Shown in pieces: positions 1 through 53,882 of a DNA stretch of 64,000 nt. Every line of letters starts with the position of its first letter. Position 1 is the first letter of the stretch. Source of the DNA: Rubrivivax sp. GTDB lineage: Bacteria > Pseudomonadota > Gammaproteobacteria > Burkholderiales > Burkholderiaceae_C. Under the pieces are notes generated by a model, which searched no databases, had not been told where the DNA came from, and saw only the letters and a list, made by a program, of their open reading frames with translations. Made by a program: the position numbers and the translations under genes. The DNA is taken from NCBI GenBank assembly GCA_018780805.1, contig JADMJD010000079.1, forward strand, positions 10,167-74,166. Direction: 5' to 3'.

Positions 1-3000
1 GTGGTGCCGGTGCCCGTGGTCAGCACCTGCAGGCTGGCGGCGCTGATGTCCAGGTCGGTGGTGCCGCTGTCGGAGATGGTCAGCGCCTGCAGGCTGACAC
101 CGCCGGCCGTGGCCAGGCTGCCCAGGCTCAGGCTGCCGGTGGCAACCAGGCGCAGCGTGCCACTGCCGGACGTGAGTGCTGCACCGTCGGCCAGCGCCAG
201 GTTGGCGCCGCTTTGCAGATCGATCGAACCGGCGCCGCTGGTGGTGACGTCACCCGCCGCGGCCAGGCTCAGGTTGCCGGACGCCAGCAGGCTCACCGGC
301 CCGCTGGCGTTGACGGCCGCGCCCAGGCTCAGCTGCCCGGCCAGCACGTCCAGCCGCAGGCTGCCCACGGTGCTGGCACTGGCCACGGCAAGGTCGCCGC
401 TGCTGAGTGTGAGCACCGCCGCCCCCCCGGCCTGCAGGCCTTGTTGCGCGGCCAGGGCCACGGCGGCACTGCTGCCATCGGCAGCCAGGCGCTCAGCGGC
501 CACGGCCACCGCGCCCAGGCTGAGCCCGGCGTCGTCGGCCAGGAAGACCGCACCGGTGCCCGCCACCGCGGTCAGCGTGCCGGTCTGCAGTTCCAGTGCA
601 TTCGCGCCGCTGCCGATGCTGCTGCCGGCCGTCAGGCGCACCGCGGCGGCGACGACGTCCACGGCGCTGTCGCCGTCGGCATCGCTGTCCAGGATGCGGT
701 CGGCCAGCAAAGCGGCGTTGGCCGTGCCGGCGCTGATGCTGACACCGACGCCGGCCAGCGTCAGATCGCCCGCGGCACTGAGCAGCAGGTCGCCATTGTT
801 CGTGGCAAGCGTGGCGCCCAGGCTCAGGTGGCGGCCAGCCTCGGCGACGATGCTGCGGCCAGCGGTGTCGGTGCCGATGGTCGCGCTGGCCAGCACATCG
901 CGGCCCGCGACCAGGCCCAGGTGGCCGCCGGTGCTGCGCACGGCTGCGGCCAGGCTCAGGTCGGCCGCCGAACCCATGGCGGCCAGGCGCAGCGGCCCGG
1001 CGGCGAGTGCCGCACCGCCCGCGGCCAGGCCCAGGCTGCCGGTGTTCGTGAGGATCAAGGCGCCGGCACTGACGAGGTCCGACAACGGGGTGTCACCCGC
1101 CACCTCGGACACGCTGCCGTCGGCCGCGACACGGGCGATGGTGGTGGCCGCCAGGGTGTCGATCAACAGGCTGCCGGTGTTGGCCAAGTAGAGCCCGTCG
1201 GCCCCGGCGCTGGCCACGAGCTGGCCCACGGCCAGGTCCAGCGCGTCGCTGCTGCTGCCCAGGCCGCCACTGCTGGCCACCAGGCGCAGGCGGGCGGCGG
1301 TCACGTCGACGGCATCGTCACCATCGGTCACGGCCGTCGCCGACAGGCTGACCGTGCCGGTGCCGGCATCCAGCGCCGACAGGCTCAGCACGCCGGCGCT
1401 GGCCATGCGGGCATCACCACCGCCGGTGCTGGCGCTGCTGCCGGCCGCCATCGTCAGCGCGGCGCCGGCTTGCACATCCAGGTCCGCACCGCCGGTGAGC
1501 AGGCTGCCGCCGGCCGCCAAGCTGAGCGTGCCTGCGGACTGCAGCGACAGCACACCACCACCGCTGTCCACGGCCGCGGCGATGTGCACGGCGCCGGCCT
1601 GGGCGACCAGCCGCAGGGCACCACCGTCGCTGTCGACGGCCGCGTCCACGCCCAGGTCGCCGGCCAGGCTGGTCAACACCAGCGGCGCGGCGCCCAGCGC
1701 GCTCAGGCCGCTGCCGCTGACGGCCAGGGCCGACAGGCTGCCGTCGGCCGCGACGCGGTTGACGTTGAAGGCCACGCTGCCCACATTCAGGCCGTCGCTT
1801 TCGACCAGGTGAACGCCCCCCGCCGAGCTGCGGGCGGCCAAGGTGCTGACCGCGATCTCCAGCGCATTGGCCGCGCTGCCCAGACCGGCACCGGCCTGCA
1901 GCCAGACCTGGGCGGCGCTGAGGTTGATGTTGCTGTCACCCGTTGCATCGGCGTCCAGCAGCGCAGCCCCGGCGACCAGGGCGATGTCACCCCCCGTCGC
2001 CACGAGGTTGGCCACCGTCAGCGCGCCGCCGGCCTGCAGGTGCTGGCTGGCGGCGGTGCTGCCGACACCGGCGGCCATCACCAGATCGGCCGCAGCGAGC
2101 AGATCGACGCTGCTGCCGGCCACGGGCGCCGACAGCGTCAGCTGGGCCGCCGATTGCACACTGAGCGCAGCACCAGCCGTGAGGCCTGAGCCGACCTCCA
2201 GCGCACCGGCCGTCGTGGCCAGCAGCGCGGCGCCCGTGGCCGCCACCGTGGCGCCCGCACCGATCTGCAGCGCGCCCCCGCTGCGCAGCACCAGGGCCGC
2301 GCCGCTGTTCAGGCCGGCCAATGCGCTGTTGATGCGCGGGTCGGTGTCCAGCGTGCCATCGGACAACACACGCACACCGGTGGTCTGCGCCAGCGCCACC
2401 ACCTGCAGCGCATCGGCTTCGGCCAGGTACAGGCCGCCGCCCACGGCGCCCGCAGCCAGCTGCGCCACCTGCAGTTGCAACGGCACGCTCGCCGTGCCGG
2501 CGGCACCGGCCGTGGCGGCCAGGCGCAGGGCGTCCGCGGTGAACAGCGCTCCCGCGCTGCCTTGCCAGGACGCGGCCGAGAGGTTGATGTCGCCGCTGCC
2601 GGCGTTCAGGTCGTCCACCGTCGCCGCGCCGATGGCGAGCAGGCGCATGTCACCACCGGCCGTGCTGGTGGCCTGGCTGAAGGCCAGCGCTGCGCCCGCC
2701 TGCGCATCGAGCGACCCACCACCACCGACGGCGATGGCCGCCGAGGCCGTGAGGTCGCCGGTGCTGATCAGGCTCAGGCTGCCGTCCAGCGTGGCCAGCG
2801 CGGCGTCGATGTTCAGCGTGCCGGCGGCCGTGAGGCGCGCGTGGCCCACCGCGGTGGTGGCGACGGCACGGTTCAGGTCCAGCGTGCCGCTGGCGTCCAG
2901 CACCAGGGGGCCGGCGGCAGACAGGCCGGCCAGCGCGGCGTCGGCGGCCAGGGCACTGGCCGTGCCGTCCGCGGCCACGCGCTGTACCGCGGCGCCAGCC

Positions 3001-5522
3001 ACGCTGTCCACCGCCGTGAGGCCGGCCGACAGGAACACCGCGCCGCCCGCCTGCACCGCCACCGAGGCGGCATTGAAAACCAGCGCCTGCGCGCCACTGG
3101 CCACCGCGCCGCCGGCCGCGATGCGCAGCGCACCGGCCACGACATCGGTGCCCGGCGCAGCCGCCAGCGTCACGGCGCCACCCGCCTGCAGGCTGACGGT
3201 GCCGGCGCCCGCATCGGCGCGGCCAAGCTGCAGGGCTGCGCCGGCCTCGGCACGTTGGGCGCCACCTTGGGTGAGCAGGCGCACATCGGCGCCCATGCCG
3301 AGGTTGCTGCCGGCACGCAGGTCCAGCGTCTGGCCGCTGGCCGCCGCGCGCACGTCAAAGGCCGCGCCCTGCAGCAGCAAGGCCTGCGAAGCCAGCAGGC
3401 TGATGCTGCCACCCAGCGTCAGCACCTCGGCACCCAGGCTCAGGTCACCCGCCAGCGCCTGCAGCAGGATGTGGCCGCTGCCGCTGGCTTGTGCGCGCAC
3501 CGCGCCACCGACCGACAGCGTGCCGCTGCTGGCCAACACGGCGATGGCGCCATCGCCGGAACCTGCGGTGCCCAGCCCGGTGACCACGAGTGCCGTTTCG
3601 TCGACGAAGAAGATGCCGCCGCCGGCCGTGGTGCTGGCCTGCAGCGAGCCGACGGTGCCGCGCAGCGCGGCGCCTGCGGCACCCACGCCGCTGGCGGCTT
3701 CCAGGGTGACCACGGCCGCTTCACCCCGCAGGTTGGCCGTGTCGCCGGCCAGGCCGTCGAGGATGCGGCCACCGGTGGAGCGCAGTGTGATGGCGTTCGC
3801 GGCTTCGATGATGCCGATGCTCAGGTCGCCCGCGGCCTCGATCTCGACGATGCCGCTGGGCCCGGCCACGATGGTGATGCCGCTGAAATCCAGCATGCCG
3901 CCAGAGACAAAGGCCACGGTGCCGCCGTTGGACGTGACCGCCGCGCCGATGGCCAGGTTGCCGGTGCCAGCGGCGAGCGTGATGTTTGCTGCGCCGGTGG
4001 CGGTGATAGCCGCCGCTGCGGCGGTGGTCAAGGCGTCGGCGGCCGAGAGCAGCACCGTGCCGTCAACGACGTTGATCGGCGCGTTCAACACCAGATCAGA
4101 ACCGGTGCCCAACGCCTGCAGCGTGAGTGCGCCGCTGCCGGCGATGGCGATGCCGGCACCGGCGGCCAGCGTGATGCTGCCGTTGTCGGCCAGCAGCGAT
4201 ATGTCGTTGGCCCCGCTGCCGGCCGCTTGCGAAAGGCTGACCACGGTGACGGCGCCGGTGATCTGCGTGTTGTCGAAACGCGTGGTGTTGCGCGCGGTGT
4301 TGATCTCGATGGCGATGTCGCCGGCACCGCTGTTGCTGGCCTGCAAGCTGTTGGTCTCGACCGAGTCCAGCGTGATGCCGGTGGCGGCCGACACCACCAG
4401 CAGCGGCGTGCGCAAGGCTTCATCAACGCGGTTGTCAGCACCTGCATCGGCCTGCACCACGCTGCCGCCGCTGCTGACCAGGCTGACGCTGTCGGCCTCG
4501 ATCTCGTTGGCCAGGTTGATGTTGCCGCTGGCCTCCAGCGCCAGGCTGTCGCCGGGCCCCAGCCGCAGCATCGCGTTGGGGTCGCTGTAGTCGCTGACGG
4601 TGATCGTGCCGCCACGCAGCACGGCAGGGTCGCGCAAGCTCACGCCGTCCAGGGCCGTTTCGGCGCCCACCGTCATCGCGCCCTGCCCGGTCTGGCCGAT
4701 GGCGATGCTGGAGAAGCCGTCGGCGAAGGCCCGCATCTCCGCGGTTTCCAGGTTCAGCACGCCCGCGGTGGCCGCACCCACGGGCGACAGCAGCGCCGTG
4801 GCCAGGCCGGGCGTGGCAGCGCGCAGGGTCAGCAGGCCGGTGCCGCTGAACAACTCGTCGCCCATCTGCAGGTCGATCTCGTCGGCCTCGATAGTGACGT
4901 TGCCTGGTGTCGTCGCCAAGCCGAGCTGCAGTTCGACCGCCGCTTTGAACACCACCTGCGTGGCGCCAGTGATGTTGAGGCTGCCGCCGTTGCGCAGCGT
5001 GATCTGGTCGTTGAAGGTGATGATGCCGCCGGCGTCGATGGTCAGGTTGCCGTCGACTATGAGTTCGCCCCCAAAGGTGACATCTTCACCGGCCACGACC
5101 GTTAGACCGTTCAACGCGTCTCTACCGTCCCCCTCTTCAACTGCACCAAAGAATGTGACATTGCCCCCTGCCACGACCAGTAACGTGTCGGTACCCGAGG
5201 AATGACTCACGACATAGTCAGTCGCATCGTCCCCTATCCGAACGTTGCCTACAGTTGCCTCGATACGCCGATCCCCGTCTACCTCAATCGATGTCTGTAT
5301 CGAGCTGATGTTGCCCGTTGCCACAATCAGGTCTGTGCTCAAGACGAAGGGCAGCCCGCTCAACGGCACGATGACGTCCTCATCCGCCTGCGGCGCCAGC
5401 GCCATCAGGCCTGCAGTCAGCGGGTCGGCCGACAGCAGCAACCGGGCCTCCAGGGCCTCCACGCGCCAGGCTTCGCGCAGTGCGCGTTGGAGCTTCGAAG
5501 CCGGCGTGCGGTCACAGTACAA
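1..5522 (-). CDS. Second giant LEPR-XLL-leader surface/adhesin-like protein, beta-helix-like repeats; 3' end runs off the window (>1,840 aa); not in the supplied ORF track
   Basis: Translated by hand: TTG at 5522-5520, GGAGG 6 nt upstream (5533-5529). Reads MYCDRTPASKLQRALREAWRVEALEARLLLSADP... The frame was read fully over 5522-4981 and spot-checked at 3001, 1201 and 1-40 (...DISAASLQVLTTGTGT) with no stop. The track lists no minus ORF in this frame, consistent with no stop inside the window. Codons are strongly G/C-ending outside 5050-5340. Confidence 0.9.
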   Translation of the reverse strand, partial: MYCDRTPASKLQRALREAWRVEALEARLLLSADPLTAGLMALAPQADEDVIVPLSGLPFVLSTDLIVATGNISSIQTSIEVDGDRRIEATVGNVRIGDDATDYVVSHSSGTDTLLVVAGGNVTFFGAVEEGDGRDALNGLTVVAGEDVTFGGELIVDGNLTIDAGGIITFNDQITLRNGGSLNITGATQVVFKAAVELQLGLATTPGNVTIEADEIDLQMGDELFSGTGLLTLRAATPGLATALLSPVGAATAGVLNLETAEMRAFADGFSSIAIGQTGQGAMTVGAETALDGVSLRDPAVLRGGTITVSDYSDPNAMLRLGPGDSLALEASGNINLANEIEADSVSLVSSGGSVVQADAGADNRVDEALRTPLLVVSAATGITLDSVETNSLQASNSGAGDIAIEINTARNTTRFDNTQITGAVTVVSLSQAAGSGANDISLLADNGSITLAAGAGIAIAGSGALTLQALGTGSDLVLNAPINVVDGTVLLSAADALTTAAAAAITATGAANITLAAGTGNLAIGAAVTSNGGTVAFVSGGMLDFSGITIVAGPSGIVEIEAAGDLSIGIIEAANAITLRSTGGRILDGLAGDTANLRGEAAVVTLEAASGVGAAGAALRGTVGSLQASTTAGGGIFFVDETALVVTGLGTAGSGDGAIAVLASSGTLSVGGAVRAQASGSGHILLQALAGDLSLGAEVLTLGGSISLLASQALLLQGAAFDVRAAASGQTLDLRAGSNLGMGADVRLLTQGGAQRAEAGAALQLGRADAGAGTVSLQAGGAVTLAAAPGTDVVAGALRIAAGGAVASGAQALVFNAASVAVQAGGAVFLSAGLTAVDSVAGAAVQRVAADGTASALAADAALAGLSAAGPLVLDASGTLDLNRAVATTAVGHARLTAAGTLNIDAALATLDGSLSLISTGDLTASAAIAVGGGGSLDAQAGAALAFSQATSTAGGDMRLLAIGAATVDDLNAGSGDINLSAASWQGSAGALFTADALRLAATAGAAGTASVPLQLQVAQLAAGAVGGGLYLAEADALQVVALAQTTGVRVLSDGTLDTDPRINSALAGLNSGAALVLRSGGALQIGAGATVAATGAALLATTAGALEVGSGLTAGAALSVQSAAQLTLSAPVAGSSVDLLAAADLVMAAGVGSTAASQHLQAGGALTVANLVATGGDIALVAGAALLDADATGDSNINLSAAQVWLQAGAGLGSAANALEIAVSTLAARSSAGGVHLVESDGLNVGSVAFNVNRVAADGSLSALAVSGSGLSALGAAPLVLTSLAGDLGVDAAVDSDGGALRLVAQAGAVHIAAAVDSGGGVLSLQSAGTLSLAAGGSLLTGGADLDVQAGAALTMAAGSSASTGGGDARMASAGVLSLSALDAGTGTVSLSATAVTDGDDAVDVTAARLRLVASSGGLGSSSDALDLAVGQLVASAGADGLYLANTGSLLIDTLAATTIARVAADGSVSEVAGDTPLSDLVSAGALILTNTGSLGLAAGGAALAAGPLRLAAMGSAADLSLAAAVRSTGGHLGLVAGRDVLASATIGTDTAGRSIVAEAGRHLSLGATLATNNGDLLLSAAGDLTLAGVGVSISAGTANAALLADRILDSDADGDSAVDVVAAAVRLTAGSSIGSGANALELQTGTLTAVAGTGAVFLADDAGLSLGAVAVAAERLAADGSSAAVALAAQQGLQAGGAAVLTLSSGDLAVASASTVGSLRLDVLAGQLSLGAAVNASGPVSLLASGNLSLAAAGDVTTSGAGSIDLQSGANLALADGAALTSGSGTLRLVATGSLSLGSLATAGGVSLQALTISDSGTTDLDISAASLQVLTTGTGT

Positions 5523-43406: not shown

Positions 43407-43422
43407 GAGTGCAATCGGATGT

Positions 43423-43482: not shown

Positions 43483-44211
43483 ATGTTCGAGAAAGTTGTC
43501 CCGGTCAACCGTGAGCGCCACGCCAAGACACGCGTGCGTGAGATCCAGGGTTTTGGTTTTGCCGCCAAGTTCCACATCGCCTATGTGACGATGCACGAGT
43601 TCTCTCGCGCCGCGGCGGTCTACCCCATCGTGTACGTGGAAGACAAGGACAGCTTCCGCCCGGTGGCCCTGCTGGGCCTGGACGCGGGCGAAAACCTGTT
43701 CGTCGCGCCCGACGGTGGCAAGTGGGAGGCCTCCTACGTGCCGGCCATCATCCGGCGCTACCCGTTTGCGCTGGCCGCGACTGGCGGCGAAGGCCAGTAC
43801 ACGATCTGCCTGGATGAAGGCAGCGAACTGATCAGCACCACCGACGGCAGCCCGCTGTTCGACGACAAGGGCGAGCCCACCCAGGTGATTGAAAACGTCA
43901 AGCGCTACCTGGCGGAACTGCAGCAGATGGACCAGCTCACGCAGCAGTTCACGCAGTTCCTGAAAGAGAACAACATGCTCACGCCGCTGAACATGCGCGT
44001 GCGTGACAACGACAAGGTGAAAAACATCGCCGGTTGTTATGTCGTCAATGAAGAACGGCTGAACAACCTGAGCGACGAGAAGTTCCTCGAATTGCGCAGC
44101 AAGCGCTTTCTGCCCGCGATCTACGCGCAATTGATGTCGCTGGCCCAGATCGAGCGGCTGATGACGCTCAAGGACAAGCGCCATGCCCCTGCGCCGGCGG
44201 CCAAGGCCTGA
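43483..44211 (+). CDS. sapC: SapC family protein (242 aa)
   Basis: HEFSRAAAVYPIVY...PVALLGL...NLFV...W...YVPAIIRRYPF are the motifs I recognise for SapC. The ATG at 43483 follows GAGGAG, so it is preferred over the track's upstream start at 43390. Confidence 0.85.
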   Translation: MFEKVVPVNRERHAKTRVREIQGFGFAAKFHIAYVTMHEFSRAAAVYPIVYVEDKDSFRPVALLGLDAGENLFVAPDGGKWEASYVPAIIRRYPFALAATGGEGQYTICLDEGSELISTTDGSPLFDDKGEPTQVIENVKRYLAELQQMDQLTQQFTQFLKENNMLTPLNMRVRDNDKVKNIAGCYVVNEERLNNLSDEKFLELRSKRFLPAIYAQLMSLAQIERLMTLKDKRHAPAPAAKA

Positions 44212-45755: not shown

Positions 45756-46550
45756 ATGTTGCCGCGCTTGTTGTTGATCGCCCTGCTCGCCAGCCCAGGG
45801 GCCACCCTGGCAGCCGACTACACCGGCCTCGTGCACGCCCGCCACCAGCTCACGCTCAGCGTGGCCACGGCCGGCGTGGTGGCCGGTGTGCCGGTGCAGC
45901 CAGGTCGGCGTGTGCAGGCGGGCCAGGTGCTGCTGCAGCTGGACGACCGGCTGCAGGCCATCGAAGAACAGCGCCGCAAGACCGTGCTGGACGACCGCAG
46001 CGAGCTGGCCGCTGTCGAAGAGCGCCTGAAACTCGTGCTGCCGCTGGCGGAAGACGCGCGCAAGCTGCAGGCGAGCAAGGGTGCGCTCAGCCGCGAGGAC
46101 CTGGCCCGCGCCGAGCTGGACGTGGTCACCACCCGCGGCCGTTTGCTGCAGCTGCAGGCGCAGGAAGAACGCGAGCGCAGCGAACACCAGGGCGCGGTCC
46201 AGGAGCGCGCGCAACGGCGCCTGGTGGCGCCGGTGGCCGGTGTCATCACCAAGGTGGCCATCGACCTGGGCGAATGGGCCCGGCCTGGCGATCCGCTGGT
46301 GGAGCTGGTGGACGCGTCGGTGCTGCACCTGCGTGTCAACGTGCCAGCGGTGGCCGCGCGCAGCCTGAAAGATGGCGCCACGCTGAGCGTCAGCTTCGAG
46401 CCAGCGCTGCAGTTGCCGGCGGTGCAGGGCCAGCTGAGTTTTGTCTCGCCGGTGGTGGATGCCGCCAGCGGCCTGGTCGAGCTGCGGGTGCAGTTCAGCA
46501 ACCCCGGTGGCCGCATCCCGCCCGGCATCAAGGGGCAGGTGAAGCTGTGA
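45756..46550 (+). CDS. Periplasmic adaptor / membrane fusion protein (HlyD/RND type) with cleavable signal peptide
   Basis: Lipoyl-like halves (GVVAGVPVQPGRRVQAGQVLLQLD; LVAPVAGVITKV...GEWARPGDPLVELVD) flank a coiled hairpin; C-terminal SPVVDAASG...PPG. Confidence 0.88.
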   Translation: MLPRLLLIALLASPGATLAADYTGLVHARHQLTLSVATAGVVAGVPVQPGRRVQAGQVLLQLDDRLQAIEEQRRKTVLDDRSELAAVEERLKLVLPLAEDARKLQASKGALSREDLARAELDVVTTRGRLLQLQAQEERERSEHQGAVQERAQRRLVAPVAGVITKVAIDLGEWARPGDPLVELVDASVLHLRVNVPAVAARSLKDGATLSVSFEPALQLPAVQGQLSFVSPVVDAASGLVELRVQFSNPGGRIPPGIKGQVKL

Positions 46551-46554: not shown

Positions 46555-48456
46555 ATGAGTGCGGTGCCGTCCGGCAACCCGTCGGCCCGGGAGGTCATCG
46601 AAGCCCTGCACGCACTGCGCCAGGCGCCGGTGGACGCCGCTTGGTGGCCGCTGCTGGCCGGCAACCTGCAGCGCCTGTGCCGCGCAAACGCCGTGTGGCT
46701 GCTGCAGGAGGCCGACGGCCGGCTGCAGCCGTTGGCCCAGGCCGGCAGCGCGGCCGCCGTCGACGACCCGCTGCGCGAGGCCTGGCAGGACGAGTTGCGC
46801 ACGCTGCTCGGCCGGGCCGGCAGCCAGGGGTATGCCACCTGCCCGGGGCGCAGCGCGGCCGGTGCAGCAGGCTGGTGGGCCGCGGTCCGCATGGAGCGCC
46901 AGGCCGGCGGCTGGATCCTGCTGAACCTGCCCGACGCCGAACGTGCGCAGATCAACGAGTTGCTGCTGCGCGCTCAGCTGGTGGCGGACCTGCCCGGCCC
47001 GTCGCCGGATCACACCCCCGCCGCAGAACCCGCACCAGGCACAGCCCTGAGCCCGCTGGCCGCCACCAATGGCGCCGACCTGCCGCAGACCTGGCACCGC
47101 CTGGCCGACGTCGCGGCGCAGGTCACCGTGCAAACCGCATTCGGCCCGGCGGCGCTGGCGCTGGTGAACGGCCTGGCCGCACGCTGCGAAGCACAGCAGG
47201 TGGTGCTGGGCTGGCGCGCAGGCCCGGGTGCGCGGCCCGAGGTGGTGGCCATCAGCCACCGCGACAAGTTCGACCGCGGCAGCGCGCCCATCGCACGCAC
47301 CGAAGACGCGCTGGACGAGGCGCTGGACCACGCCGGCGGGGTCTGGCTGCCCGCGCCGCGGGGCCAGCCGGTGATCAACGACACACCCGCCCATGCCCTG
47401 CTGCAGGAAGAGCTGGGCCGGCCGCTGCACCTGCTCTCCCTGCCGCTGGCGCAGGCCGACAGCGCGCCGCGCGCGGTTCTGCTGCTGGCCTTCGAGACCC
47501 CGCCCTCCCCGCTGCTGCGCAGCCTGCTGCCGGCCAGCTTGCAGCAACTGCTGCCCACGCTGGAACTGCTGCACGACCGCGAGCGCGCCTGGCCGCTGCG
47601 CATGAAAGACCGTGCGCTGGTACACCTGCAAGGCTGGCTGGGCCCGGGCCGCACGGGCTGGAAGGCCAGTGCCGGCATCGGCGCGTTGCTGCTGCTGTAC
47701 ACGCTGTTGGCGCACTGGGACTACCGCGTCAACGCGACCGGCCAGATCGTCACCGACAGCACCCGCGTGCTCAGCGCGCAGTTCGACGGCCGGGTGGAAG
47801 AAGCCCGCGCCAAGGCCGGCGACGTGGTGCGCAGCGGTGATGTGCTGGCCCGGCTGGACACCCGCGAGCTGCGTCAGCAGGAGGTGGACGCCGGCGCCGA
47901 GTTGAAACGTTACGTGGCCGAGGCCGACAAGGCCCGCGCCGCCAACGCACTGGCCGAGCTGGAGGTGGCCTCGGCCCGCGCCGCGCAGGCGCAGGCCCGG
48001 CTGTCGCGGGTGCTGGAGCTGATCAACCAGGCCCAGGCGACAGCACCCTTCGATGGCGTGGTGGTCGAAGGCGAGCGACAGGAGCTGCAGGGCGCGCCGG
48101 TGCGCAAGGGCGACAAACTCTACCGGCTGGCCCGCATCGAAGGCCTGTACGCCACGCTGGTGGTGCCCGAGCGCGACGCCGCGCTGGTGGCACCCGGCGC
48201 CAGCGGCGAGCTGGTGCTGGTGAGCCGGCCGGGGCAGAAGATCCCACTGCGCGTGACGGCGGTGATCCCGGTGGCGCAGACCCGCGGCAGCGAAGGCAAC
48301 CAGTTCCTGGTGCGCGCCGAACTGCAGCAGGCGCCCGAGGCCTGGTGGCGGCCCGGCATGAGCGGCGCCGCGCGCATCGACGCCGGCGAACGGCAGGTGG
48401 CCTGGATCCTGACGCACCGGCTGCTGGACACCTTGCGCCTGTGGTTGTGGTGGTGA
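46555..48456 (+). CDS. Membrane fusion protein with N-terminal GAF-like region
   Basis: The C-terminal third is a HlyD-type MFP (SAQFDGRVEEARAKAGDVVRSGDVLARLD...ATAPFDGVVVEG) preceded by one TM segment. The ~350-aa N-terminal region has a GAF-like pattern (inference). Confidence 0.78.
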   Translation: MSAVPSGNPSAREVIEALHALRQAPVDAAWWPLLAGNLQRLCRANAVWLLQEADGRLQPLAQAGSAAAVDDPLREAWQDELRTLLGRAGSQGYATCPGRSAAGAAGWWAAVRMERQAGGWILLNLPDAERAQINELLLRAQLVADLPGPSPDHTPAAEPAPGTALSPLAATNGADLPQTWHRLADVAAQVTVQTAFGPAALALVNGLAARCEAQQVVLGWRAGPGARPEVVAISHRDKFDRGSAPIARTEDALDEALDHAGGVWLPAPRGQPVINDTPAHALLQEELGRPLHLLSLPLAQADSAPRAVLLLAFETPPSPLLRSLLPASLQQLLPTLELLHDRERAWPLRMKDRALVHLQGWLGPGRTGWKASAGIGALLLLYTLLAHWDYRVNATGQIVTDSTRVLSAQFDGRVEEARAKAGDVVRSGDVLARLDTRELRQQEVDAGAELKRYVAEADKARAANALAELEVASARAAQAQARLSRVLELINQAQATAPFDGVVVEGERQELQGAPVRKGDKLYRLARIEGLYATLVVPERDAALVAPGASGELVLVSRPGQKIPLRVTAVIPVAQTRGSEGNQFLVRAELQQAPEAWWRPGMSGAARIDAGERQVAWILTHRLLDTLRLWLWW

Positions 48457-48473: not shown

Positions 48474-50621
48474 ATGGCCGGCCATCTGCTCAGCGACGCC
48501 TGGTACCAGGTGGCCGACGCCCAGGTGGCGCTGCTGCCCACGGTGCAGGCGCAGCCGCAGCGGTTTCGCGGCCGTACCTGGGTGGTGCTGGAAGATCCGT
48601 ATGCACACCGCTTCTTCCGCGTCACACCCCAGGCCTACAGTTTTTTGCGCGCGCTGAACGCCGAAGAGACCGTGGACGCCGTCTGGCAGCGCGTGGCGGC
48701 CGAACAGCCCGACACCGTGCCCACGCAGGACGAGGTGCTGGGCCTGCTGTCGCAGCTGCATTTGTCCAGCCTGCTGTACTTCCGCGCCGCACCGCAGAGC
48801 AGCGCCATCTTCGAGCGCCAGCAGGCCACCCGTCGGCGTGAGCTGATGGGCAAGGCCATGGCCTTCCTGTTCGTGCGCATCCCGCTGTTCAGCCCGGACC
48901 GGGCGCTGAACGCCGTGCAGCCACTGGTCCGCGCCACCACCGGCCGGGCAGCCGGGCTGGTCTGGATGGCGGTGGTGCTGGCCGGCCTGTGGGCCGTGAT
49001 CGGCGAGTGGCCGGCGTTGTCGGCCGCGGGCCAGGGGCTGCTGTCGCTGTCCAACCTGCCGGTGTTGTACGTGGCCATCGCCATCGTCAAGGTGATCCAC
49101 GAGCTGGCGCACGCTTTCGTCTGCAAACGTTATGGCGGCCAGGTACCGGTGTTCGGCATCATGCTGCTGGTGCTGGCGCCGCTGCCGTACACCGATGCCA
49201 CCGCCAGCTGGGGCCTGCGCAGCAAGTGGCAGCGCGCCTACATCGGCGCCGCCGGCATGCTGGCCGAGCTCTTTGTGGCCGCACTTGCCGCCCTGGTCTG
49301 GGTCAACACCGGGGCCGGGCCGGTGAACAGCCTGGCCTTCAACATGATGGTGGTGGGCTCGGTGTCCAGCCTGCTGTTCAACGGCAACCCGCTGCTGCGC
49401 TTTGACGCGTACTACATCCTCTCCGATCTGGCCGAGCTGCCCAACCTGTACCAGAAGGCGCAGGCGCAGTGGCTGCACTGGGGCCGGCGCTTTGTGCTGG
49501 GCCAGGCCGACAGCCAAGGCCCGGCGACCGACGCGAGCGAGCGCAGCTGGTACGGCTTTTACGGCGCCGGCGCGTTTGCCTACCGGCTGCTGGTGACGGC
49601 GACCATCCTGCTGTTTGTCACCGACCAGTGGTTCGCCGTCGGCCTGGTGCTGCTGGTCACCACCGCGCTGGCCATGGTGCTGATGCCCTTGTCCAAGTTC
49701 GGACGTTACCTGCTCGCGCTGCGCCAGGGCCGTGGCCGGGCACTGGCCGGCACGGCCGGCGTGGTGGCGCTGCTGTGGTTGGGCATCGCTGTCTTGCCGC
49801 TGCCGCACGCCGTGCGCCTGCAGGGGGTGTTGCAGGCCCAGGCCAGCAGCCAGCTCTACGTGCAGACCGCCGGCCAGCTGGTGGCGCTGCCGGTGCGCCA
49901 TGGGCAGCGTGTGGCCAAAGGCGAGCTGATCGCCCGCCTGGACAACCCCGACCTGACACATGCGCTGCAGGCCGTGGCGCTGCAGCAGGCCGAGACCGAA
50001 GCGATGCAGCGCCAGGCCCTGCTGGCCACACCGGCCGAGGTGGCGCCGCTGCAGAGCCGGCTCGACGCGCTGCGCGACCGCGAACGCGAGCTGCGGGTGC
50101 TGGCCGCCCAGCTGGAGGTGCGCGCACCGCAGGCCGGCGAGTGGGTGGCGCCGCTGCTGCACGAACGCCAGGGCAACTGGATCGAACGTGGCCAGCCGCT
50201 GGGTGAGCTGGTGGACCGCGGCGCCTTCCGCTTCAGCGCCGTGCTGCCGCAGAGCCAGGCGGCCGAACTCTTCGGCCTGCCCGACGCAGGCGGCGACGTG
50301 CGGCTGATGCACGCGCGCGGCGTCGATCTGCCGGTGGCCCGGCTGCGCCTGGTGCCCTACCAGCGCCAGCGCCTGATGTCGCCGGTGCTGGGTTTTGGCG
50401 GTGGTGGGGATGTGGCGGTGCGGCCCGACGATGCCAGCGGTACGCTGGCCACCGAACCGTTTTTCGAGCTGCAGGCCGAGCTGGCTGACCCAGCGCTGGC
50501 CGGGCTGGTGGCCTACCACGGCCTGTCCGGGGTGCTGCGGGTGCCGGTGCCGGCCCGGCCGCTGTGGGAACGCACCGTCGCGGCGCTGCGCCAGCTGCTG
50601 CAGCAGCGGTACCAGGTGTGA
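48474..50621 (+). CDS. PqqD-like domain / M50 site-2 metalloprotease / MFP fusion protein
   Basis: HELAH zinc motif plus NGNPLLRFD third-ligand motif within a multi-TM core. The N-terminal ~90 aa look like a PqqD/RRE winged helix. The C-terminus has an MFP lipoyl/hairpin (GQLVALPVRHGQRVAKGELIARLDN). Confidence 0.85.
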   Translation: MAGHLLSDAWYQVADAQVALLPTVQAQPQRFRGRTWVVLEDPYAHRFFRVTPQAYSFLRALNAEETVDAVWQRVAAEQPDTVPTQDEVLGLLSQLHLSSLLYFRAAPQSSAIFERQQATRRRELMGKAMAFLFVRIPLFSPDRALNAVQPLVRATTGRAAGLVWMAVVLAGLWAVIGEWPALSAAGQGLLSLSNLPVLYVAIAIVKVIHELAHAFVCKRYGGQVPVFGIMLLVLAPLPYTDATASWGLRSKWQRAYIGAAGMLAELFVAALAALVWVNTGAGPVNSLAFNMMVVGSVSSLLFNGNPLLRFDAYYILSDLAELPNLYQKAQAQWLHWGRRFVLGQADSQGPATDASERSWYGFYGAGAFAYRLLVTATILLFVTDQWFAVGLVLLVTTALAMVLMPLSKFGRYLLALRQGRGRALAGTAGVVALLWLGIAVLPLPHAVRLQGVLQAQASSQLYVQTAGQLVALPVRHGQRVAKGELIARLDNPDLTHALQAVALQQAETEAMQRQALLATPAEVAPLQSRLDALRDRERELRVLAAQLEVRAPQAGEWVAPLLHERQGNWIERGQPLGELVDRGAFRFSAVLPQSQAAELFGLPDAGGDVRLMHARGVDLPVARLRLVPYQRQRLMSPVLGFGGGGDVAVRPDDASGTLATEPFFELQAELADPALAGLVAYHGLSGVLRVPVPARPLWERTVAALRQLLQQRYQV

Positions 50622-52411
50622 TGGGGCTGCACCGCCACCGGGCCAGGCGCCGCTGGTTGGCGAGCCAGGCCACGGCCCGGGCGGCATTGGCACTGGAACG
50701 CCAGCAGCCGGCCGACCTGGCCACGGCACACCAGGCCGCGCGCCGGGCCGCGGTGCGCCAGGAGCCGGCCCTGCAGCAGCTGGCCCAGCTGCAGGGCCTG
50801 GCCACGGTGCTGGCGGCGGTGGAGAGCCATCAAGGTCGGGCCGTGCCGGCCCCGGTGGTGGACACCGCGCTGGCCCTGCTGCGCCACGCCGCCGTCGAGC
50901 TGCCCGCGCTGAAGGACCGCCGCCTGGCCACTGCCCTGGCTGCTGCCACGGCCGCGCTGGCCGGCGAGCCGGTGCACGTGGTGACCACCAGCGATGAAGA
51001 CGCGGCGGCCACGGCCGCGGCCATGCGCCCGGTGTTCGACGCCTGTGGCCTGAGTGCCGCCGCGTTGTCGCTGGACATGGCACCGGCCGCGCTGGCCGCC
51101 GGCTACCGCGCTGACGTGGTGCTGGCCGGTGTGCGCCGGCTGGCTGCCGACCTGGCGCGCGACGAGCATCTGCAGTCGCGCCTGGGCGCCGATGGCCCGG
51201 TGCCGCTGCTCACCCGCGGCGCCGCCTGGGCTTTGCTGGAGCCGCTGGACCGTGTGCTGGCCGATGAAGCCCTGGGCCCGGTGCAGCTGTCGGTGGCCGA
51301 CGACCCCAGCGGCTTCGGCGCCGCGCTGGCGCTGGCCCGCCGCCTGGCCGACACCCTGGTGACCGGTGTGCACCACGACGGCCTGGACCTGCTGGACGCC
51401 GGCCGTGAGCTGCTGGACACCCACACCACCGCCTGGCCACCGCTGTGGCGGGCCGCCGCCAGGCGCGACGACCTGGTGCGCCAGGCGCTGTACGTGCGCG
51501 ACGGCCTGCAGCGTGGGCGCGACTACGAGCTCGCGCCCGGCAACCTGCTGTGGCTGGACGAAGGCCTGTCCGAGCGCCTGCCCGAGCGTGGCTTCAGCCC
51601 GGGCCTGAGCCAGGCCCTGCAACTGCGGCTGGGCGTGCCGATGGCGCCCATCACCCGCACCCTGGGGCGCACCAGCGTGCCGGCCTTCTGCCAGCGCTAC
51701 CGCCACCTGGCAGGCACCGCACCGGCGCTGGCCGGACTGGACGCCGAACTCTGGCAGGCCCATGGCCTGACGCTGCACGTGGCCGCGCCCGCCCCGCCGC
51801 TGCCCTGCAGCACCCGCGCCCTGCCGGACCGCGCCGCCTGGGAGCAGGCGCTGGCCGATGCCGCCGGCTCGGGCGCCGACAGCCTGGCCCGCCTGGTGGT
51901 GCTGCGCCGCGCCGCCGACCTGGCCAGCCTGCAGGCCCTGGTGCAGCACCCGCGTGCCGCCTGGGCACTGGAGGCCGTGGGCCCGCAGACGGCGTTGCAG
52001 GCGCTGGGGTTTGGCGGCCCGGACGCACCGGCGGGCCTGCGTGTGGTGTTTGCCGAGCCGCCCGACACCGCCCGCGCGGAGCTCGCCTTCCTGCGCCGCG
52101 CCGCCGACGCCAGCAGCGGCACGTTCGAAGCCGTGCGCCTGGTGCATGCCCACAGCCGCTGGCTGGCCGACCGCCTGCCGCTGCCGGCAGCGGCCTTGCG
52201 CCAGCTGTGCCGCCTGTGGCCCGGCGCCGCCCCGCGGCTGCTGCCCGCCCTGGTGGCCTGGGCACAGCGCTGCACGGCACGCCAGACCCGCGCCCACCGC
52301 CTGGCGCTGCCCCAACGTGAACGCCAGCTGCAGCAGCAACTCTCCTTCACCGCCGCCCGGTCGCCAGCCCCAACGCCCGGCCCCCAGCCGGCCCCCGGAA
52401 CATCCCCTTGA
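50621..52411 (+). CDS. SecA_DEAD-like protein with degenerate ATPase motifs (596 aa)
   Basis: Colinear with SecA by eye: GEPVHVVTTSD, YRADVVLA, DRVLADEALGPVQLS, RDYEL...LDE...FSPGLSQALQ...TRTLGRTSV..FCQRYRHLAG. TGATG overlap with the upstream stop (alternative GTG at 50618). Confidence 0.72.
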   Translation: MGLHRHRARRRWLASQATARAALALERQQPADLATAHQAARRAAVRQEPALQQLAQLQGLATVLAAVESHQGRAVPAPVVDTALALLRHAAVELPALKDRRLATALAAATAALAGEPVHVVTTSDEDAAATAAAMRPVFDACGLSAAALSLDMAPAALAAGYRADVVLAGVRRLAADLARDEHLQSRLGADGPVPLLTRGAAWALLEPLDRVLADEALGPVQLSVADDPSGFGAALALARRLADTLVTGVHHDGLDLLDAGRELLDTHTTAWPPLWRAAARRDDLVRQALYVRDGLQRGRDYELAPGNLLWLDEGLSERLPERGFSPGLSQALQLRLGVPMAPITRTLGRTSVPAFCQRYRHLAGTAPALAGLDAELWQAHGLTLHVAAPAPPLPCSTRALPDRAAWEQALADAAGSGADSLARLVVLRRAADLASLQALVQHPRAAWALEAVGPQTALQALGFGGPDAPAGLRVVFAEPPDTARAELAFLRRAADASSGTFEAVRLVHAHSRWLADRLPLPAAALRQLCRLWPGAAPRLLPALVAWAQRCTARQTRAHRLALPQRERQLQQQLSFTAARSPAPTPGPQPAPGTSP

Positions 52412-52442: not shown

Positions 52443-53882
52443 ATGAACGCACGTCAACGCCTCTTCTTTTGCCCTGCCGGGCTGTCATTCGCCGCGGTGG
52501 CTGCCGCCGGCCTGCTGGCGGCCTGCGGCGGAGGCGGCGGTGGTTCGTCGCCCAGCGGCCCGCTGACGATCACCACCACGCCGGTGCTGGCCGGCAGTGC
52601 GCTGGTGTATGCCATCACCCTGCCCAACGGCTACAACGACGCGTCCATCGTCACCTACCGCACGGCCGATGTGGCCAGCGGCCTGGGTTACGCCACCGGT
52701 GGCCTGGCCTGCGGCGCCGGGGTGGACTACATCGCCGTGCCCGCGGGCAGCGTCACCATCACACGCAGCGGCACGGTGAACATCACCACCTGCCCCAACG
52801 CCAGCTTCGAACCGAACGAACAGCTGGTGCTGGTGGTCGATTGGCAAGGCGGCAGCACACGCAACCCGGGGCTCATCGTCAACACCGTGGCCGGTGGCCT
52901 GAATGACACCGGCAGCAGCCAGTGCCTGGACGCCAGCGGCGCCCTGGTGGCCTGCACCGCCGCCACCGCACTGGCCGGCCAGGACGGCAGCACCGGCCGC
53001 GACACCACCGCCGTGAGCAACGGCGGCAGCGACGGCCGCCTGGGTTTTGCGTTCACGGCCAGCGGCGGCTGCGTGACCGACCATGTCACCGGCCTGGTCT
53101 GGGACAGCAGCGCAGAAAGCGCCGGCACTGTGGCGACGGCCGAAGCCAACGTGGCCGCCGCCAACACCGCGGCGCGCTGCGGCGCCAGCGACTGGCGGCT
53201 GCCCACGACTGCCGAACTGCTGTCGCTGGTGGACGCCGGCCTGAGCAGCGGCGCCCGCATCGACCCCACGTTTGCCGACACGCCCGCCAACGGCTTCTGG
53301 ACCGCCGAGCCCTATGCCGGCGATACGCGCGCGTCGTGGCTGGTGGATTTCAGTTCCGGCGCGGTGGCCTTCGACACCGCCACCAACCCGCTGGCCAAGG
53401 CCTTCTCCAGCCGCCTGGTGCGCGGCACGGCCGACACACCGGCCTGCGATGCCGACGTCGCCACGCTGGTCACCAACAGCAACGCCACCGTCACCGACAG
53501 CCGCCTGGGCCTGATGTGGCAGCAGTGCGCCGAAGGTTTGTCGGGCGCCGGTTGTGCCACCGGCACGGCCACGGTCTACGGCACCTATGCCGCGGCGTTG
53601 TCACGCGCCGCGGCCGTCAACGCCGACCCGGCCGGTGCCGGCCGTGGCCACAGCGATTGGCGGGTGCCCAACCGCAACGAACTGGCGTCGCTGGTGAACC
53701 GCCGCTGCGAAGCACCGGCCATCCAGCGCACGCCCTTCCCAGGCACACCGTCGGCCAGTTTCTGGACCGCCACGCCGGCCTTTGCCGGGTTCGCCTGGTA
53801 CGTGGATTTCACCGACGGCAGCATCGGCCCCGGTGGCACGACGGGCGACCGTGTGCTGCGCCTGGTGCGCGGCGGGCAGTGA
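52443..53882 (+). CDS. Lipoprotein with Calx-beta-like domain and two Lcl C-terminal (DUF1566) domains (479 aa)
   Basis: Lipobox LLAAC followed by GGGGGGSS; GLNDTG motif; two VTDxxTGLxW...DWRLP/VPxxxELxSLV...FW domains ending LVRG. Start at ATG 52443. Confidence 0.85.
   Translation: MNARQRLFFCPAGLSFAAVAAAGLLAACGGGGGGSSPSGPLTITTTPVLAGSALVYAITLPNGYNDASIVTYRTADVASGLGYATGGLACGAGVDYIAVPAGSVTITRSGTVNITTCPNASFEPNEQLVLVVDWQGGSTRNPGLIVNTVAGGLNDTGSSQCLDASGALVACTAATALAGQDGSTGRDTTAVSNGGSDGRLGFAFTASGGCVTDHVTGLVWDSSAESAGTVATAEANVAAANTAARCGASDWRLPTTAELLSLVDAGLSSGARIDPTFADTPANGFWTAEPYAGDTRASWLVDFSSGAVAFDTATNPLAKAFSSRLVRGTADTPACDADVATLVTNSNATVTDSRLGLMWQQCAEGLSGAGCATGTATVYGTYAAALSRAAAVNADPAGAGRGHSDWRVPNRNELASLVNRRCEAPAIQRTPFPGTPSASFWTATPAFAGFAWYVDFTDGSIGPGGTTGDRVLRLVRGGQ

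Follow-up and report, generated by a model that had tools for sequence, protein, structure and literature searches.

The locus described here is read, with modest confidence, as a TolC-dependent trans-envelope exporter devoid of an ABC transporter (the 'secondary SecA_DEAD / M50-HlyD' type), along with two of its cargo proteins, both marked by an N-terminal leader. The candidate leader consists of a basic patch followed by LExLEPRxLLSAD. The locus lies in a window (the whole stretch of DNA analysed, 64,000 nucleotides) from Rubrivivax sp. This secretion route is probably widespread, and its cargo signal is identifiable. The idea of such an exporter is not new, since Kamneva, Poudel and Ward 2015, rightly cited in the original prediction, describe the module (core: GAF-HlyD, M50-HlyD, SecA_DEAD and HlyD, sometimes TolC) and already proposed that M50 is the inner-membrane pore and SecA_DEAD the ATPase (PMC4452313; PLoS One 10:e0129066).

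Two tandem giant genes on the minus strand diverge, as had been claimed, from seven plus-strand genes (from sapC to a lipoprotein gene) over an intergenic region of 162 bp (43321..43482, sequence read directly). The gaps or overlaps among the seven genes are, as also claimed, 31 nt or less. This length holds with sapC starting at ATG 43483, and residue 9 is the first one covered by the Pfam SapC match. A consensus scan of the region revealed no sigma-70-like promoter. A two-component system is inserted at the corresponding position in two other loci (L010 and L011). The predicted absence of an ABC protein is borne out: no ORF of the window pairs a Walker A motif with an LSGGQ-type signature.

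The unit made of giant gene and seven genes is found in the window and in three other loci (L001, L003 and L097) amid different flanking genes. The arrangement is thus not due to chance, which supports the earlier view of a cohesive unit moving between genomic contexts. L097 belongs to a cultured isolate, Roseateles sp. LKC17W. All seven genes and the 37.8-kb ORF of the giant are intact in the window, L001 and L097; in L003, where the contig end cuts the giant gene, its start with the motif is intact, as are the seven genes. Every gene is under purifying selection (dN/dS 0.01-0.21 for the window-L001 pair).

Giant gene A (5512..43320, minus strand; 12,602 aa, ORF listing) is a real coding sequence, since GC reaches 0.90 at the third codon position (GC3) versus 0.48 at the second one. 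Its product (roughly 1.3 MDa) is acidic (D+E 12.1% versus K+R 4.6%) and contains a single cysteine. At least 10 tandem repeats, spaced by about 157 aa, were found, as well as six RTX-like GGxGxD repeats in the middle of the protein (residues 4646-4770); no RTX repeats were found near its C-terminus. Orthologues have 12,628 aa (L001) and 12,948 aa (Roseateles, L097). Giant gene B (1..5522, minus strand) is partial: over 1,840 aa fall within the window, beyond whose left edge the gene continues. The open frame extends from 5651 to position 1; the probable start is a TTG at 5522, overlapping the stop of giant gene A (5512-5514). Giant B (residues 66-1758) shares 35% identity with giant A (residues 10443-12094). 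No Pfam match was found in either giant.

The LEPR-XLL motif announced for both giants is present at both N-termini. Scores against NCBIfam NF012209 (cut-off 17 bits) are 33.9 bits for giant A (FRLEPLEPRVLLSADP; 43225..43278, minus strand, 15-32 residues from the start) and 31.5 bits for giant B (WRVEALEARLLLSADP; 5415..5468, minus strand, residues 19-36 from the 5522 start). The motif is N-terminal in a long ORF in 118 of 120 metagenomic matches. The leader flanks are basic upstream (R/K 27%) versus 2.4% downstream, figures that concern positions not fixed by the LEPR search pattern. As cited in PMC8567305, Studholme 2004 proposed the motif as an export signal in Rhodopirellula. At the C-terminus of some LEPR-XLL proteins there are RTX and serralysin domains, which are typical of ABC-dependent type I substrates (PMC10868602); this counts against the proposed reading.

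The proposed link between LEPR-XLL genes and the module is seen in gene-neighbourhood analysis in both directions, module-first and cargo-first. Eighty genome loci from many phyla were retrieved through M50-HlyD. The gene order GAF-HlyD, M50-HlyD, SecA_DEAD is essentially universal among them; an ABC-like ORF occurs within 10 kb in 3 of these loci and inside the module in none. An ORF with the LEPR motif is found in 16 of the 80 loci; no LEPR gene was seen in the available flank of the other 64 modules. Thirteen LEPR ORFs lie 3 kb or less from the module (358 kb searched) versus three farther away (423 kb searched). These 16 loci cover seven phylum- or class-level lineages: Beta-, Gamma- and Alphaproteobacteria, Desulfobacterota, Myxococcota, Verrucomicrobiota and Planctomycetota. 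From the cargo side (73 metagenomic LEPR N-termini preceded by 1.5 kb of sequence or more), SapC, an HlyD-type gene, SecA_DEAD or M50 is encoded directly upstream in 25 cases; for about two thirds of these 73 genes, no module component was found in that position. This share, like the 64 modules with no LEPR gene seen, counts against the proposed reading. The order SapC then LEPR gene recurs at other loci, and a LEPR fragment from Verrucomicrobiales directly follows a full module.

The first plus-strand gene encodes a SapC-family protein (43483..44211, 242 aa; PF07277, E 1e-71) and is the most constrained of the locus (dN/dS 0.010 versus L001). Neither signal peptide nor membrane helix was found in the protein, which, judged from its sequence, is cytoplasmic; its fold gave no clue to function. 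The next genes encode a TolC-family outer-membrane factor with a hydrophobic N-terminus and a signal peptide (44183..45751; PF02321 OEP, E 6e-26; TIGR01844, E 5e-15) and a small periplasmic adaptor of HlyD/RND type (45756..46550, 264 aa; HlyD_3, HlyD_D23; TIGR01730, 110.7 bits, above cut-off). According to topology prediction, the latter has a cleavable signal peptide and no membrane anchor. In the X-HlyD (GAF-type) adaptor (46555..48456), about 360 aa form an N-terminal domain in the cytoplasm; a membrane helix and a periplasmic HlyD part (HlyD matches at residues 391-601) follow. The description of this adaptor as GAF-like holds by orthology (GAF in 27 of 33 orthologues), the window protein itself giving no GAF match. 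The last gene encodes an Lcl_C (DUF1566) lipoprotein (52443..53882; PF07603, E 1e-53, two matched stretches) with the lipobox LLAAC|GG, probably anchored in the outer membrane. This gene was found at 3 of the 80 related genome loci and at L001, L003 and L097, and is confined to a Burkholderiales clade.

The M50-HlyD fusion (48474..50621, plus strand; Peptidase_M50, HlyD and daptide_HExxH matches) combines a cytoplasmic PqqD-like (RRE) domain, a polytopic M50-type metalloprotease (about 6-7 membrane helices by topology prediction) and a periplasmic HlyD domain. The Peptidase_M50 score is 27.5 bits (cut-off 27.2), and the NCBIfam daptide_HExxH match (E 7e-48) remains below its cut-off (164 versus 300 bits), so the M50 part is not a member of the daptide family. 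The PqqD-like assignment also holds by orthology: the window protein reaches only E 0.047, whereas the domain is recognised in 14 of 33 orthologues. In the isolate orthologue it scores 29.7 bits, above cut-off. The family comprises 4,010 clusters at E<=1e-30, all of about 715 aa. The zinc-binding/catalytic HExxH motif (HELAH, 49098..49112, plus strand; residues 209-213) has H209, E210 and H213 invariant in 33 diverse orthologues. The second M50 motif (NGNPLLRFD, 49380..49406, plus strand; residues 303-311) has N303, N305, P306, L307, R309 and D311 (NxNPLxRxD) invariant in the same number. Since an invariant metalloprotease site accompanies a PqqD-type peptide-binding domain, the sequence points to a role of M50-HlyD in recognition and cleavage of an N-terminal leader, beside or instead of a channel role. 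The original prediction, in which this fusion would take the place of the ABC protein, needs changing accordingly. To our knowledge, no M50 protease has ever been shown to serve as a protein-conducting channel.

The SecA-like pseudo-ATPase (50621..52411, plus strand, 596 aa; SecA_DEAD only, PF07517, E 2e-20) has an NBD1-PPXD-NBD2 scaffold and a long C-terminal helix, without wing or C-terminal domains. Its AF2 model (pLDDT 87.8) matches SecA structures in Foldseek (E 6e-22, about 620 columns). Alignments with PDB SecA and with the family indicate that Walker A, Walker B and motifs III, V and VI are lost in the Burkholderiales-clade protein; the degenerate Walker A position (50906..50926, plus strand) reads ALKDRRL versus TGEGKTL in relatives. 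About 70 of 78 SecA-like family members have intact Walker A and B, TGT, GRGTD and GRxGRQGDPG motifs. The SecA-like protein is the fastest-evolving component (43% identity versus 60-76% for the others at L003 distance; dN/dS 0.185 for the window-L001 pair). Because this protein has lost every ATPase motif and there is no ABC pump, no energy source is visible here; the description of the locus as self-contained thus does not stand, its sole candidate motor having lost these motifs.

The proposed mechanism starts with the giant polypeptide, acidic and almost cysteine-free, which would be made in the cytoplasm and be unfolded there, with SapC adjoining it, possibly as a chaperone or an adaptor. 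The leader would be bound by the cytoplasmic PqqD-like domain, as by RiPP recognition elements; this role is suggested by domain identity. The SecA-like protein would dock at M50-HlyD and clamp the chain. Most lineages have this protein as an intact ATPase, which probably drives translocation; in the Burkholderiales clade, where every ATPase motif is gone, it could act as scaffold or clamp only. The polytopic M50 domain would form or line the inner-membrane passage, and its conserved zinc site could remove the leader. By analogy with type I secretion, TolC would be joined by three HlyD-type adaptors (M50 fusion, GAF-type fusion and soluble periplasmic protein), and the GAF-type fusion may gate the system upon ligand binding. 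As the locus encodes no motor, directionality might be supplied from outside it: extracellular repeat folding/Ca2+ binding, proton-motive force or a housekeeping ATPase. The Lcl_C lipoprotein might serve as a surface tether or partner for the cargo.

Classical type I secretion is possible, at a rather low probability: the giants would be exported via TolC and the adaptor(s) by an orphan ABC transporter or the housekeeping SecA, encoded outside the window, and the M50 and SecA-like proteins would have accessory roles (leader processing, cargo holding or quality control). It is in line with a SecA-like protein predicted to be catalytically dead in this locus, with the acidic, nearly cysteine-free giant A and its RTX-like repeats, with a Vibrio LEPR-XLL giant that has C-terminal RTX and serralysin domains (PMC10868602), and with the T1SS-like route (tolC, sapC and a distant hlyD) preferred by the authors of the work on Chlorobium chlorochromatii (bioRxiv 10.64898/2026.03.19.712371). 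However, motor motifs are intact in most SecA-like family members, the C-terminal region of giant A lacks RTX repeats and the conserved signal lies at the N-terminus, unlike the C-terminal signals of ABC type I substrates; the ancestral system also does not appear to be ABC-driven, because no module contains an ABC gene. The module could alternatively control retention and release, as LapG/LapD do on LapA, the GAF sensor and M50 acting on the N-terminal LEPR motif and export using another route. This is improbable: unless there is a conduit, the presence of three HlyD-type adaptors and a dedicated TolC is difficult to account for, and M50 active sites are located in, or close to, the cytoplasmic side of the inner membrane, whereas Lap-type cleavage is periplasmic. 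Being cytoplasmic, both the PqqD-like domain and the SecA-like protein meet the cargo before export. Such control would nevertheless account for the sensory GAF domain of most orthologues, the conserved protease site, the N-terminal position of the motif (where Lap-type retention modules sit) and the two-component systems and Crp-type regulators sometimes inserted beside the module.

Two further explanations are very unlikely. The module might export or mature a small ribosomal peptide (RiPP-like: PqqD, HExxH protease, HlyD), the LEPR giants being merely frequent neighbours. In NCBIfam, the M50 part indeed matches the daptide biosynthesis protease best, followed by weaker matches to NHLP bacteriocin HlyD and epipeptide protease, but the daptide score is far below cut-off, neither small precursor nor modification genes were found in the window or in the conserved core, and the enrichment of LEPR N-termini beside the module, across seven lineages and in both search directions, is unexpected for bystanders. 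The other holds that loss of the ATPase motifs marks a decaying, non-functional relic in this lineage, with which the rapid evolution of the SecA-like protein and the unrecognisable GAF domain would also agree. This conflicts with the intact genes of the window, L001, L003 and L097, with the low dN/dS of every gene and with the model, in which the pseudo-ATPase is confidently predicted as a full SecA scaffold.

The ABC-less exporter proposed here shares with the Kamneva 2015 module its four core genes in matching order, a SecA_DEAD without wing/scaffold domain, sometimes an OEP gene, the absence of an ABC gene and a cross-phylum spread by horizontal transfer. In that module, neither cargo nor SapC was named and SecA_DEAD was assumed to be an ATPase; in contrast, LEPR-XLL giants, SapC and the Lcl_C lipoprotein belong to the present unit, and its SecA-like protein has no ATPase motifs. 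Classical type I systems (HlyB-HlyD-TolC; Lap-type) likewise have a TolC-family duct, HlyD-family adaptors, cargo genes adjoining the exporter genes and giant repetitive cargo that is acidic, poor in cysteine and includes some RTX-like repeats. They differ from this locus, which has no ABC transporter, three different adaptors instead of one, an N-terminal instead of C-terminal cargo signal and no LapG/LapD-type genes. By analogy, peptidase-containing ABC transporters and RiPP leader systems would be similar in their N-terminal leader and in a dedicated recognition domain fused to a membrane exporter/protease, and the M50 part of the fusion is homologous to the daptide HExxH proteases and comes with a PqqD-like domain; here, a protein of about 1.3 MDa takes the place of the peptide as cargo, and the protease is fused to HlyD, not to an ABC pump.

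The comparison with sapCDEF of Campylobacter fetus, drawn in the original prediction, proves thin: both have a SapC-family gene preceding outer-membrane/adaptor genes for export of very large surface proteins, but SapC is the sole component in common, the ABC transporter SapD has no counterpart here and the cargo is unrelated to SapA S-layer proteins. In Chlorobium chlorochromatii, the LEPRxLL giants Cag_663/Cag_665 have sapC and tolC as flanking genes, are expressed together with a 'secA' gained by horizontal transfer, and are exported to the partner cell (bioRxiv 10.64898/2026.03.19.712371). Their exit from the cell was shown experimentally; the remaining components are not adjacent there, and the authors favour C-terminus-first export by a sap-like T1SS, M50-HlyD being unmentioned (same preprint). 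Gram-positive SecA2 is also a second SecA paralogue for few special substrates, and the fold matches include SecA2 structures. SecA2 proteins are active ATPases working with SecYEG or SecY2, whereas the present SecA-like protein, devoid of ATPase motifs, is linked to M50-HlyD and TolC.

Giant A (5512..43320, minus strand) is a 37.8-kb ORF of 12,602 aa. Its GC content at codon positions 1, 2 and 3 (0.68, 0.48 and 0.90) and its composition (one cysteine; D+E 12.1% versus K+R 4.6%) identify it as a real gene encoding an acidic protein of roughly 1.3 MDa, almost without cysteine. Giant B, the tandem minus-strand gene, runs from about 5522 to beyond position 1, with an open frame of more than 1,840 aa in the window. 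Both are very large proteins headed by a LEPRxLL motif: the N-termini match NCBIfam NF012209 (LEPR-XLL) at 33.9 bits (giant A) and 31.5 bits (giant B), above the cut-off of 17. A Pfam scan of all 14,400 residues of both giants gave no family at E ≤ 1e-3. Residues 777-2376 of giant A hold a tandem array with at least 10 repeat units of about 157 aa. Its RTX-like GGxGxD repeats, six in number, are confined to residues 4646-4770 of 12,602. Classical type I cargo carries an uncleaved C-terminal signal, as a rule with RTX repeats ahead of it. The last 1,000 residues of giant A hold no RTX-like repeats; C-terminal secretion signals themselves have no reliable sequence model.

Residues 66-1758 of giant B align with residues 10443-12094 of giant A at 35% identity (window 1-5522 versus 5512-13320). 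This common module, found at a different position in each tandem protein, points to shuffling of large blocks. Beyond the LEPR-XLL match, the one curated hit of giant A is a short stretch (residues 97-183) that resembles an autotransporter passenger region (NF051851, E 4e-6). At the metagenomic sites L130 and L135, as in the window, separate LEPR-motif ORFs, two in number, share one short contig, and tandem LEPR genes appear common. The window sequence was found in groundwater and biofilm metagenome DNA runs only, with no RNA run among them.

A gap of 162 bp separates the giants from seven plus-strand genes that are spaced, or overlap, by 31 nt or less; the gene content originally described, from the giants to the co-oriented series and its spacing, was accurate. 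The genes encode, in order, SapC (cytoplasmic); a TolC-family protein with a signal peptide (PF02321, E 6e-26; TIGR01844, E 5e-15, below the subfamily cut-off); a HlyD adaptor of 264 aa, also with a signal peptide; a 633-aa protein that joins 360 aa of cytoplasmic domain to a HlyD domain in the periplasm; a 715-aa M50-HlyD fusion, whose polytopic Peptidase_M50 domain stands between a domain in the cytoplasm and a periplasmic HlyD domain; a 596-aa SecA-like protein with a SecA_DEAD match only; and a lipoprotein with two Lcl_C (DUF1566) domains. HlyD_3 and HlyD_D23 domains place three of these proteins in the HlyD family. All seven genes are under purifying selection. SapC is the most constrained (99% identity, dN/dS 0.010); dN/dS values of the more divergent pair with L003, a relative of the locus, were left out, pS reaching 0.50 and being judged skewed by strong GC3 bias. 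More than 1,400 close homologues of SapC, mainly from Burkholderiales, were found; against the PDB, neither its model (pLDDT 75.8; best Foldseek match at E 0.2, TM < 0.2) nor its sequence (best phmmer match at E 0.48) had a significant counterpart that would hint at a function. A scan of 43000-54400 revealed no sigma-70-like promoter, and terminator-like sites were no commoner there than in shuffled sequence.

The region downstream (53931-63973) is a block unrelated to the export locus, whose genes were judged by synteny with L001, a close relative of the locus. It comprises an AstE/AspA-like gene (54921-56033, minus strand), a cyanophycinase (56108-56950, plus strand), two genes of cyanophycin-synthetase type (56848-59805 and 59651-61570, both plus strand), a TPR-methyltransferase (61551-62744, minus strand) and an ornithine cyclodeaminase-like gene (62771-63973, minus strand). 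By eye, the product of a 310-aa ORF (53931-54863, minus strand) resembles NAD(P)-binding proteins of NmrA/SDR type; in L001, the interval from Lcl_C to AstE holds no counterpart of this ORF.

The association of LEPR-XLL genes with the GAF-HlyD, M50-HlyD and SecA_DEAD module was searched from both ends. An alignment of four M50-HlyD proteins retrieved loci from at least 561 species genomes, of which the best 80 were kept. Among these, the order GAF-HlyD, M50-HlyD, SecA_DEAD is found wherever the contig allows, and the small HlyD gene takes one of two places, alongside TolC upstream or after the secA-like gene; the Lcl_C lipoprotein is restricted to the clade of the window. A small HMM built from the LEPR motif separated true matches (8 bits or more) cleanly from noise (7 bits or less) and detected a LEPR-motif ORF in 16 of these best 80 loci, a lower bound since 14 of the 16 cargo ORFs are cut by a contig end. 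Of the 16, thirteen are no more than 3 kb from the edge of the module, in 358 kb of searched sequence, against three in the 423 kb searched beyond that distance; in two of these three, nothing but an inserted two-component system stands between module and ORF. The LEPR-bearing loci belong to Beta-, Gamma- and Alphaproteobacteria, Desulfobacterota, Myxococcota, Verrucomicrobiota and Planctomycetota.

In the opposite direction, a degenerate DNA pattern for LExLEPRxLLSAD retrieved at least 120 metagenomic sites. In 118 of the 120 matches listed, the motif lies 2-152 residues (median 48) past a stop codon and heads a long ORF. Among the matches listed, 73 have at least 1.5 kb upstream, and 25 of these (34%) show SapC, a HlyD-type protein, SecA_DEAD or M50 directly upstream; 17 have at least 6 kb upstream, with a component in 7 and the M50/SecA core in 4. 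A search for LEPR proteins gave short fragments only. One such fragment, from a Verrucomicrobiales gene, lies directly behind a complete module, one lies behind SapC and one faces a HlyD gene; two others have nothing of the module within 10 kb. Three matches, the weakest of those followed up (P0122, P0127 and P0132, E 0.5-3), were excluded from the count as probably not LEPR proteins. The gene-neighbourhood check proposed with the original prediction thus links LEPR genes and module both ways (16/80 loci; 25/73 among the matches listed), and at this level the link is well supported.

A basic patch (R-R-K/R, then F/L) precedes the LEPR motif at positions left free in the pattern, R/K amounting to 27% upstream versus 2.4% downstream among the matches listed. 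At positions -6 to -1 of the leaders (L099-L218), R-R-K-F-L superficially resembles the twin-arginine consensus. A Tat signal was rejected: the segment that follows is charged (LExLEPR) and a hydrophobic core is absent.

Many LEPR genes have, in the sequence covered, a small HlyD-type gene as the only module gene before them, on the same strand or divergent (L100, L115, L128, L144, L146, L158, L159, L177, L199, L202 and L090); others have only sapC there (L103, L105, L133, L137, L180, L186 and L092). SapC is found directly upstream of LEPR genes even without other module genes, and the small HlyD gene likewise adjoins LEPR genes alone. Both may be cargo-specific accessories. In two Burkholderiales loci (L010, at 1925-4656, and L011), sapC is separated from the giant LEPR gene by inserted genes for an OmpR-type response regulator and for a sensor kinase of about 700 aa, rich in membrane helices, which suggests lineage-specific regulation of the divergent promoters. 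A distant four-gene module (L006) is preceded by a small DUF3467 gene (5606-5947, before GAF-HlyD) and followed by a Crp-family regulator (12926-13642, after the small HlyD); LEPR gene, SapC and TolC are absent within 10 kb of it.

The M50-HlyD fusion carries the signature of the protease family, HELAH (209-213; HExxH in a membrane helix) and, downstream, NGNPLLRFD (303-311; NxxPxxxxD(G)), and scores 27.5 bits against Pfam Peptidase_M50 (cut-off 27.2). Across 33 orthologues of only 31-57% identity, residues H209, E210, H213, N303, N305, P306, L307, R309 and D311 do not vary. The family includes 4,010 clusters (50% identity, E ≤ 1e-30) and is strikingly constant in length (about 715 aa). Of the curated models, the one closest to it is the daptide-type RiPP HExxH membrane protease NF041824 (163.7 bits, E 7e-48, residues 22-410); by this score, to be set against an equivalog cut-off of 300 bits, the fusion is a homologue rather than a member of the daptide protease family. 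Weaker matches are to other RiPP proteins. The labels "PqqD-like" and "GAF-like" given to the fusion and to the 633-aa adaptor find no clear match in the window's own sequence (no GAF hit; PqqD, PF05402: 14.5 bits, E 0.047; cut-off 23.4) and rest on orthology: PqqD matches 14 of 33 orthologues and also, at 29.7 bits versus a cut-off of 23.4, the Roseateles orthologue, and GAF matches 27 of 33 orthologues of the adaptor. In RiPP pathways, PqqD-type domains serve to recognise leader peptides. The union in a single chain of a leader-binding domain in the cytoplasm, a zinc site that is conserved and an adaptor in the periplasm suggests that the fusion would select LEPR-tagged chains, cleave their leader and couple them to the TolC conduit.

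No ORF of the window joins a Walker A to an ABC signature, which bears out the statement that no ABC transporter is encoded; in the 80 related loci, an ABC-like ORF was found within 10 kb in three and inside the module in none. The SecA-like protein is the sole motor-like product. Compared with solved SecA structures, it has ALKDRR at the position of TGEGKT and EPLD at that of DEVD; this Walker B position reads DEAD in relatives. In an alignment of 78 family sequences, about 70 keep TGEGKT, VDEADS, motif III (MTGTA), motif V (NMAGRGTDI) and motif VI (GRxGRQGDPG), and all five are lost in the window, L001, L003, L009, L010 and L011 and, separately, in L080. The Roseateles orthologue has lost Walker A, TGT and GRGTD, and a DELD remnant is left at the Walker B position. 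The motifs being lost and the best NCBIfam score being 73 bits (cut-offs 725-814), the protein does not fit a SecA/SecA2 translocase ATPase. Its model is confident (pLDDT 87.8, pTM 0.81) and superposes on SecA over about 620 columns (E 6e-22) as NBD1-PPXD-NBD2 plus one long helix, and dN/dS against the 90%-identical copy of L001 is 0.185; for these reasons it is, on alignment and model, most simply described as a conserved non-catalytic SecA scaffold. The locus would thus encode no ATPase at all, which contradicts its description as self-contained. In one Burkholderiaceae locus (L012), two SapC genes (7201-8025 and 14267-15004) flank the module, a Lcl_C-like ORF lies upstream and the ATPase motifs of the SecA-like protein are intact; SapC and Lcl_C are therefore not tied to ATPase loss.

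The main rival explanation is that power is supplied by an unlinked ABC transporter or by the housekeeping SecA. The dead motor of the window keeps it in play, as do the RTX-like repeats of giant A and the C-terminal RTX domain of a LEPR-XLL protein from Vibrio. The locus is best read, from gene content and neighbourhood, as a putative TolC-dependent, ABC-less exporter of N-terminally tagged giant proteins. The periplasmic and outer-membrane parts of this exporter would work in a type I-like manner and its cytoplasmic side like a leader-peptide-dependent exporter: the PqqD-like domain would bind the leader, the leader would be cleaved, the cargo would pass through M50, the SecA-like protein would clamp the chain and the GAF-type adaptor would gate the system. 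In the clade of the window, energy could, speculatively, come from extracellular folding, the proton-motive force or a borrowed housekeeping motor.

The study named in the original prediction (Kamneva, Poudel & Ward 2015; PMC4452313) is correctly cited. It described a secondary SecA_DEAD beside three HlyD-containing proteins, one weakly Peptidase_M50-like and one with GAF, sometimes with an OEP protein alongside, in Planctomycetes, Verrucomicrobia, Proteobacteria, one Nitrospirae and one Chlorobi. The absence of an ABC transporter was noted there; its authors proposed that SecA_DEAD provides the ATPase and that the M50 protein forms the membrane pore, and the original prediction likewise had the M50 fusion take the place of the ABC protein in the inner membrane. 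The biological role was called "completely unknown", and SapC, cargo and Walker motifs are not mentioned. The core idea (ABC-less module, M50 pore, SecA_DEAD ATPase) is thus already published since 2015. On the cargo side, Studholme 2004, as cited in PMC8567305, proposed RRLxxExLExRxLLA of Rhodopirellula surface proteins as a new N-terminal export signal; a related motif, LxLExLExRxxP, is found in 52 genes of Tuwongella. A 2026 preprint (10.64898/2026.03.19.712371) reports two Chlorobium chlorochromatii giants with N-terminal LEPRxLL domains, flanked by sapC and tolC, that reach the partner bacterium; a horizontally acquired "secA" is co-expressed and a sap-like T1SS is proposed, the M50 protein never being mentioned. 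The literature search found no paper linking the module, the LEPR motif and the C. chlorochromatii giants, or characterising the module. The present analysis adds a substrate class for the module, pointers to M50 as a leader-directed protease, a clade with a dead motor and a cultured isolate with the locus.

A gene-neighbourhood curiosity without substrate since 2015, the module receives from the LEPR-XLL link a cargo class to which belong both the surface proteins tagged "RRLxxExLExRxLLA" in Planctomycetes and the giants of the Chlorochromatium symbiosis. The cultured Roseateles sp. LKC17W (L097; GCA_043555875.1) carries the whole locus, which opens the cargo question to direct experiment. 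A broader proposition, tentative and in our judgement rather unlikely as a whole, is that the LEPR-XLL leader and the SecA-like/M50-HlyD/HlyD/TolC module would form a distinct and widespread class of Gram-negative secretion, found in thousands of lineages, with N-terminus-first threading and a cleavable leader read by a RiPP-type domain; one Burkholderiales clade would lack a dedicated ATPase, its proteins of about 1.3 MDa being pulled by extracellular folding, proton-motive force or a borrowed housekeeping motor. To our knowledge, only for ABC-driven type I systems is it understood how megadalton proteins cross two membranes. The puzzle is that the sole motor-like protein has lost every catalytic motif, yet purifying selection persists. 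Export of 12,600 residues either proceeds without a dedicated ATPase or draws on an unlinked motor; in both cases, ideas on how tripartite secretion systems are energised would change.

Among known systems, classical type I secretion shares HlyD-family and TolC-family components with the window locus but relies on an ABC transporter with Walker A, Walker B and LSGGQ, which the locus lacks. The same holds for sapCDEF of C. fetus, which joins SapC to the ABC transporter SapD, the adaptor SapE and the outer-membrane protein SapF: SapC, an adaptor and an outer-membrane factor are found here, whereas the SapD-type ABC protein is missing. Lap-type retention involves a LapG-type periplasmic cysteine protease and a LapD-type c-di-GMP receptor; no such domains are found in the seven genes. 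The hypothesis attached to the module of Kamneva et al. assumes an ATPase-competent SecA_DEAD, which the window protein is not predicted to be. The module itself (syntenic GAF-HlyD, M50-HlyD, SecA_DEAD and small HlyD) is that of the window locus, and its SecA paralogue, devoid of the wing/scaffold and C-terminal domains, agrees with the window protein (596 aa, PF07517 only).
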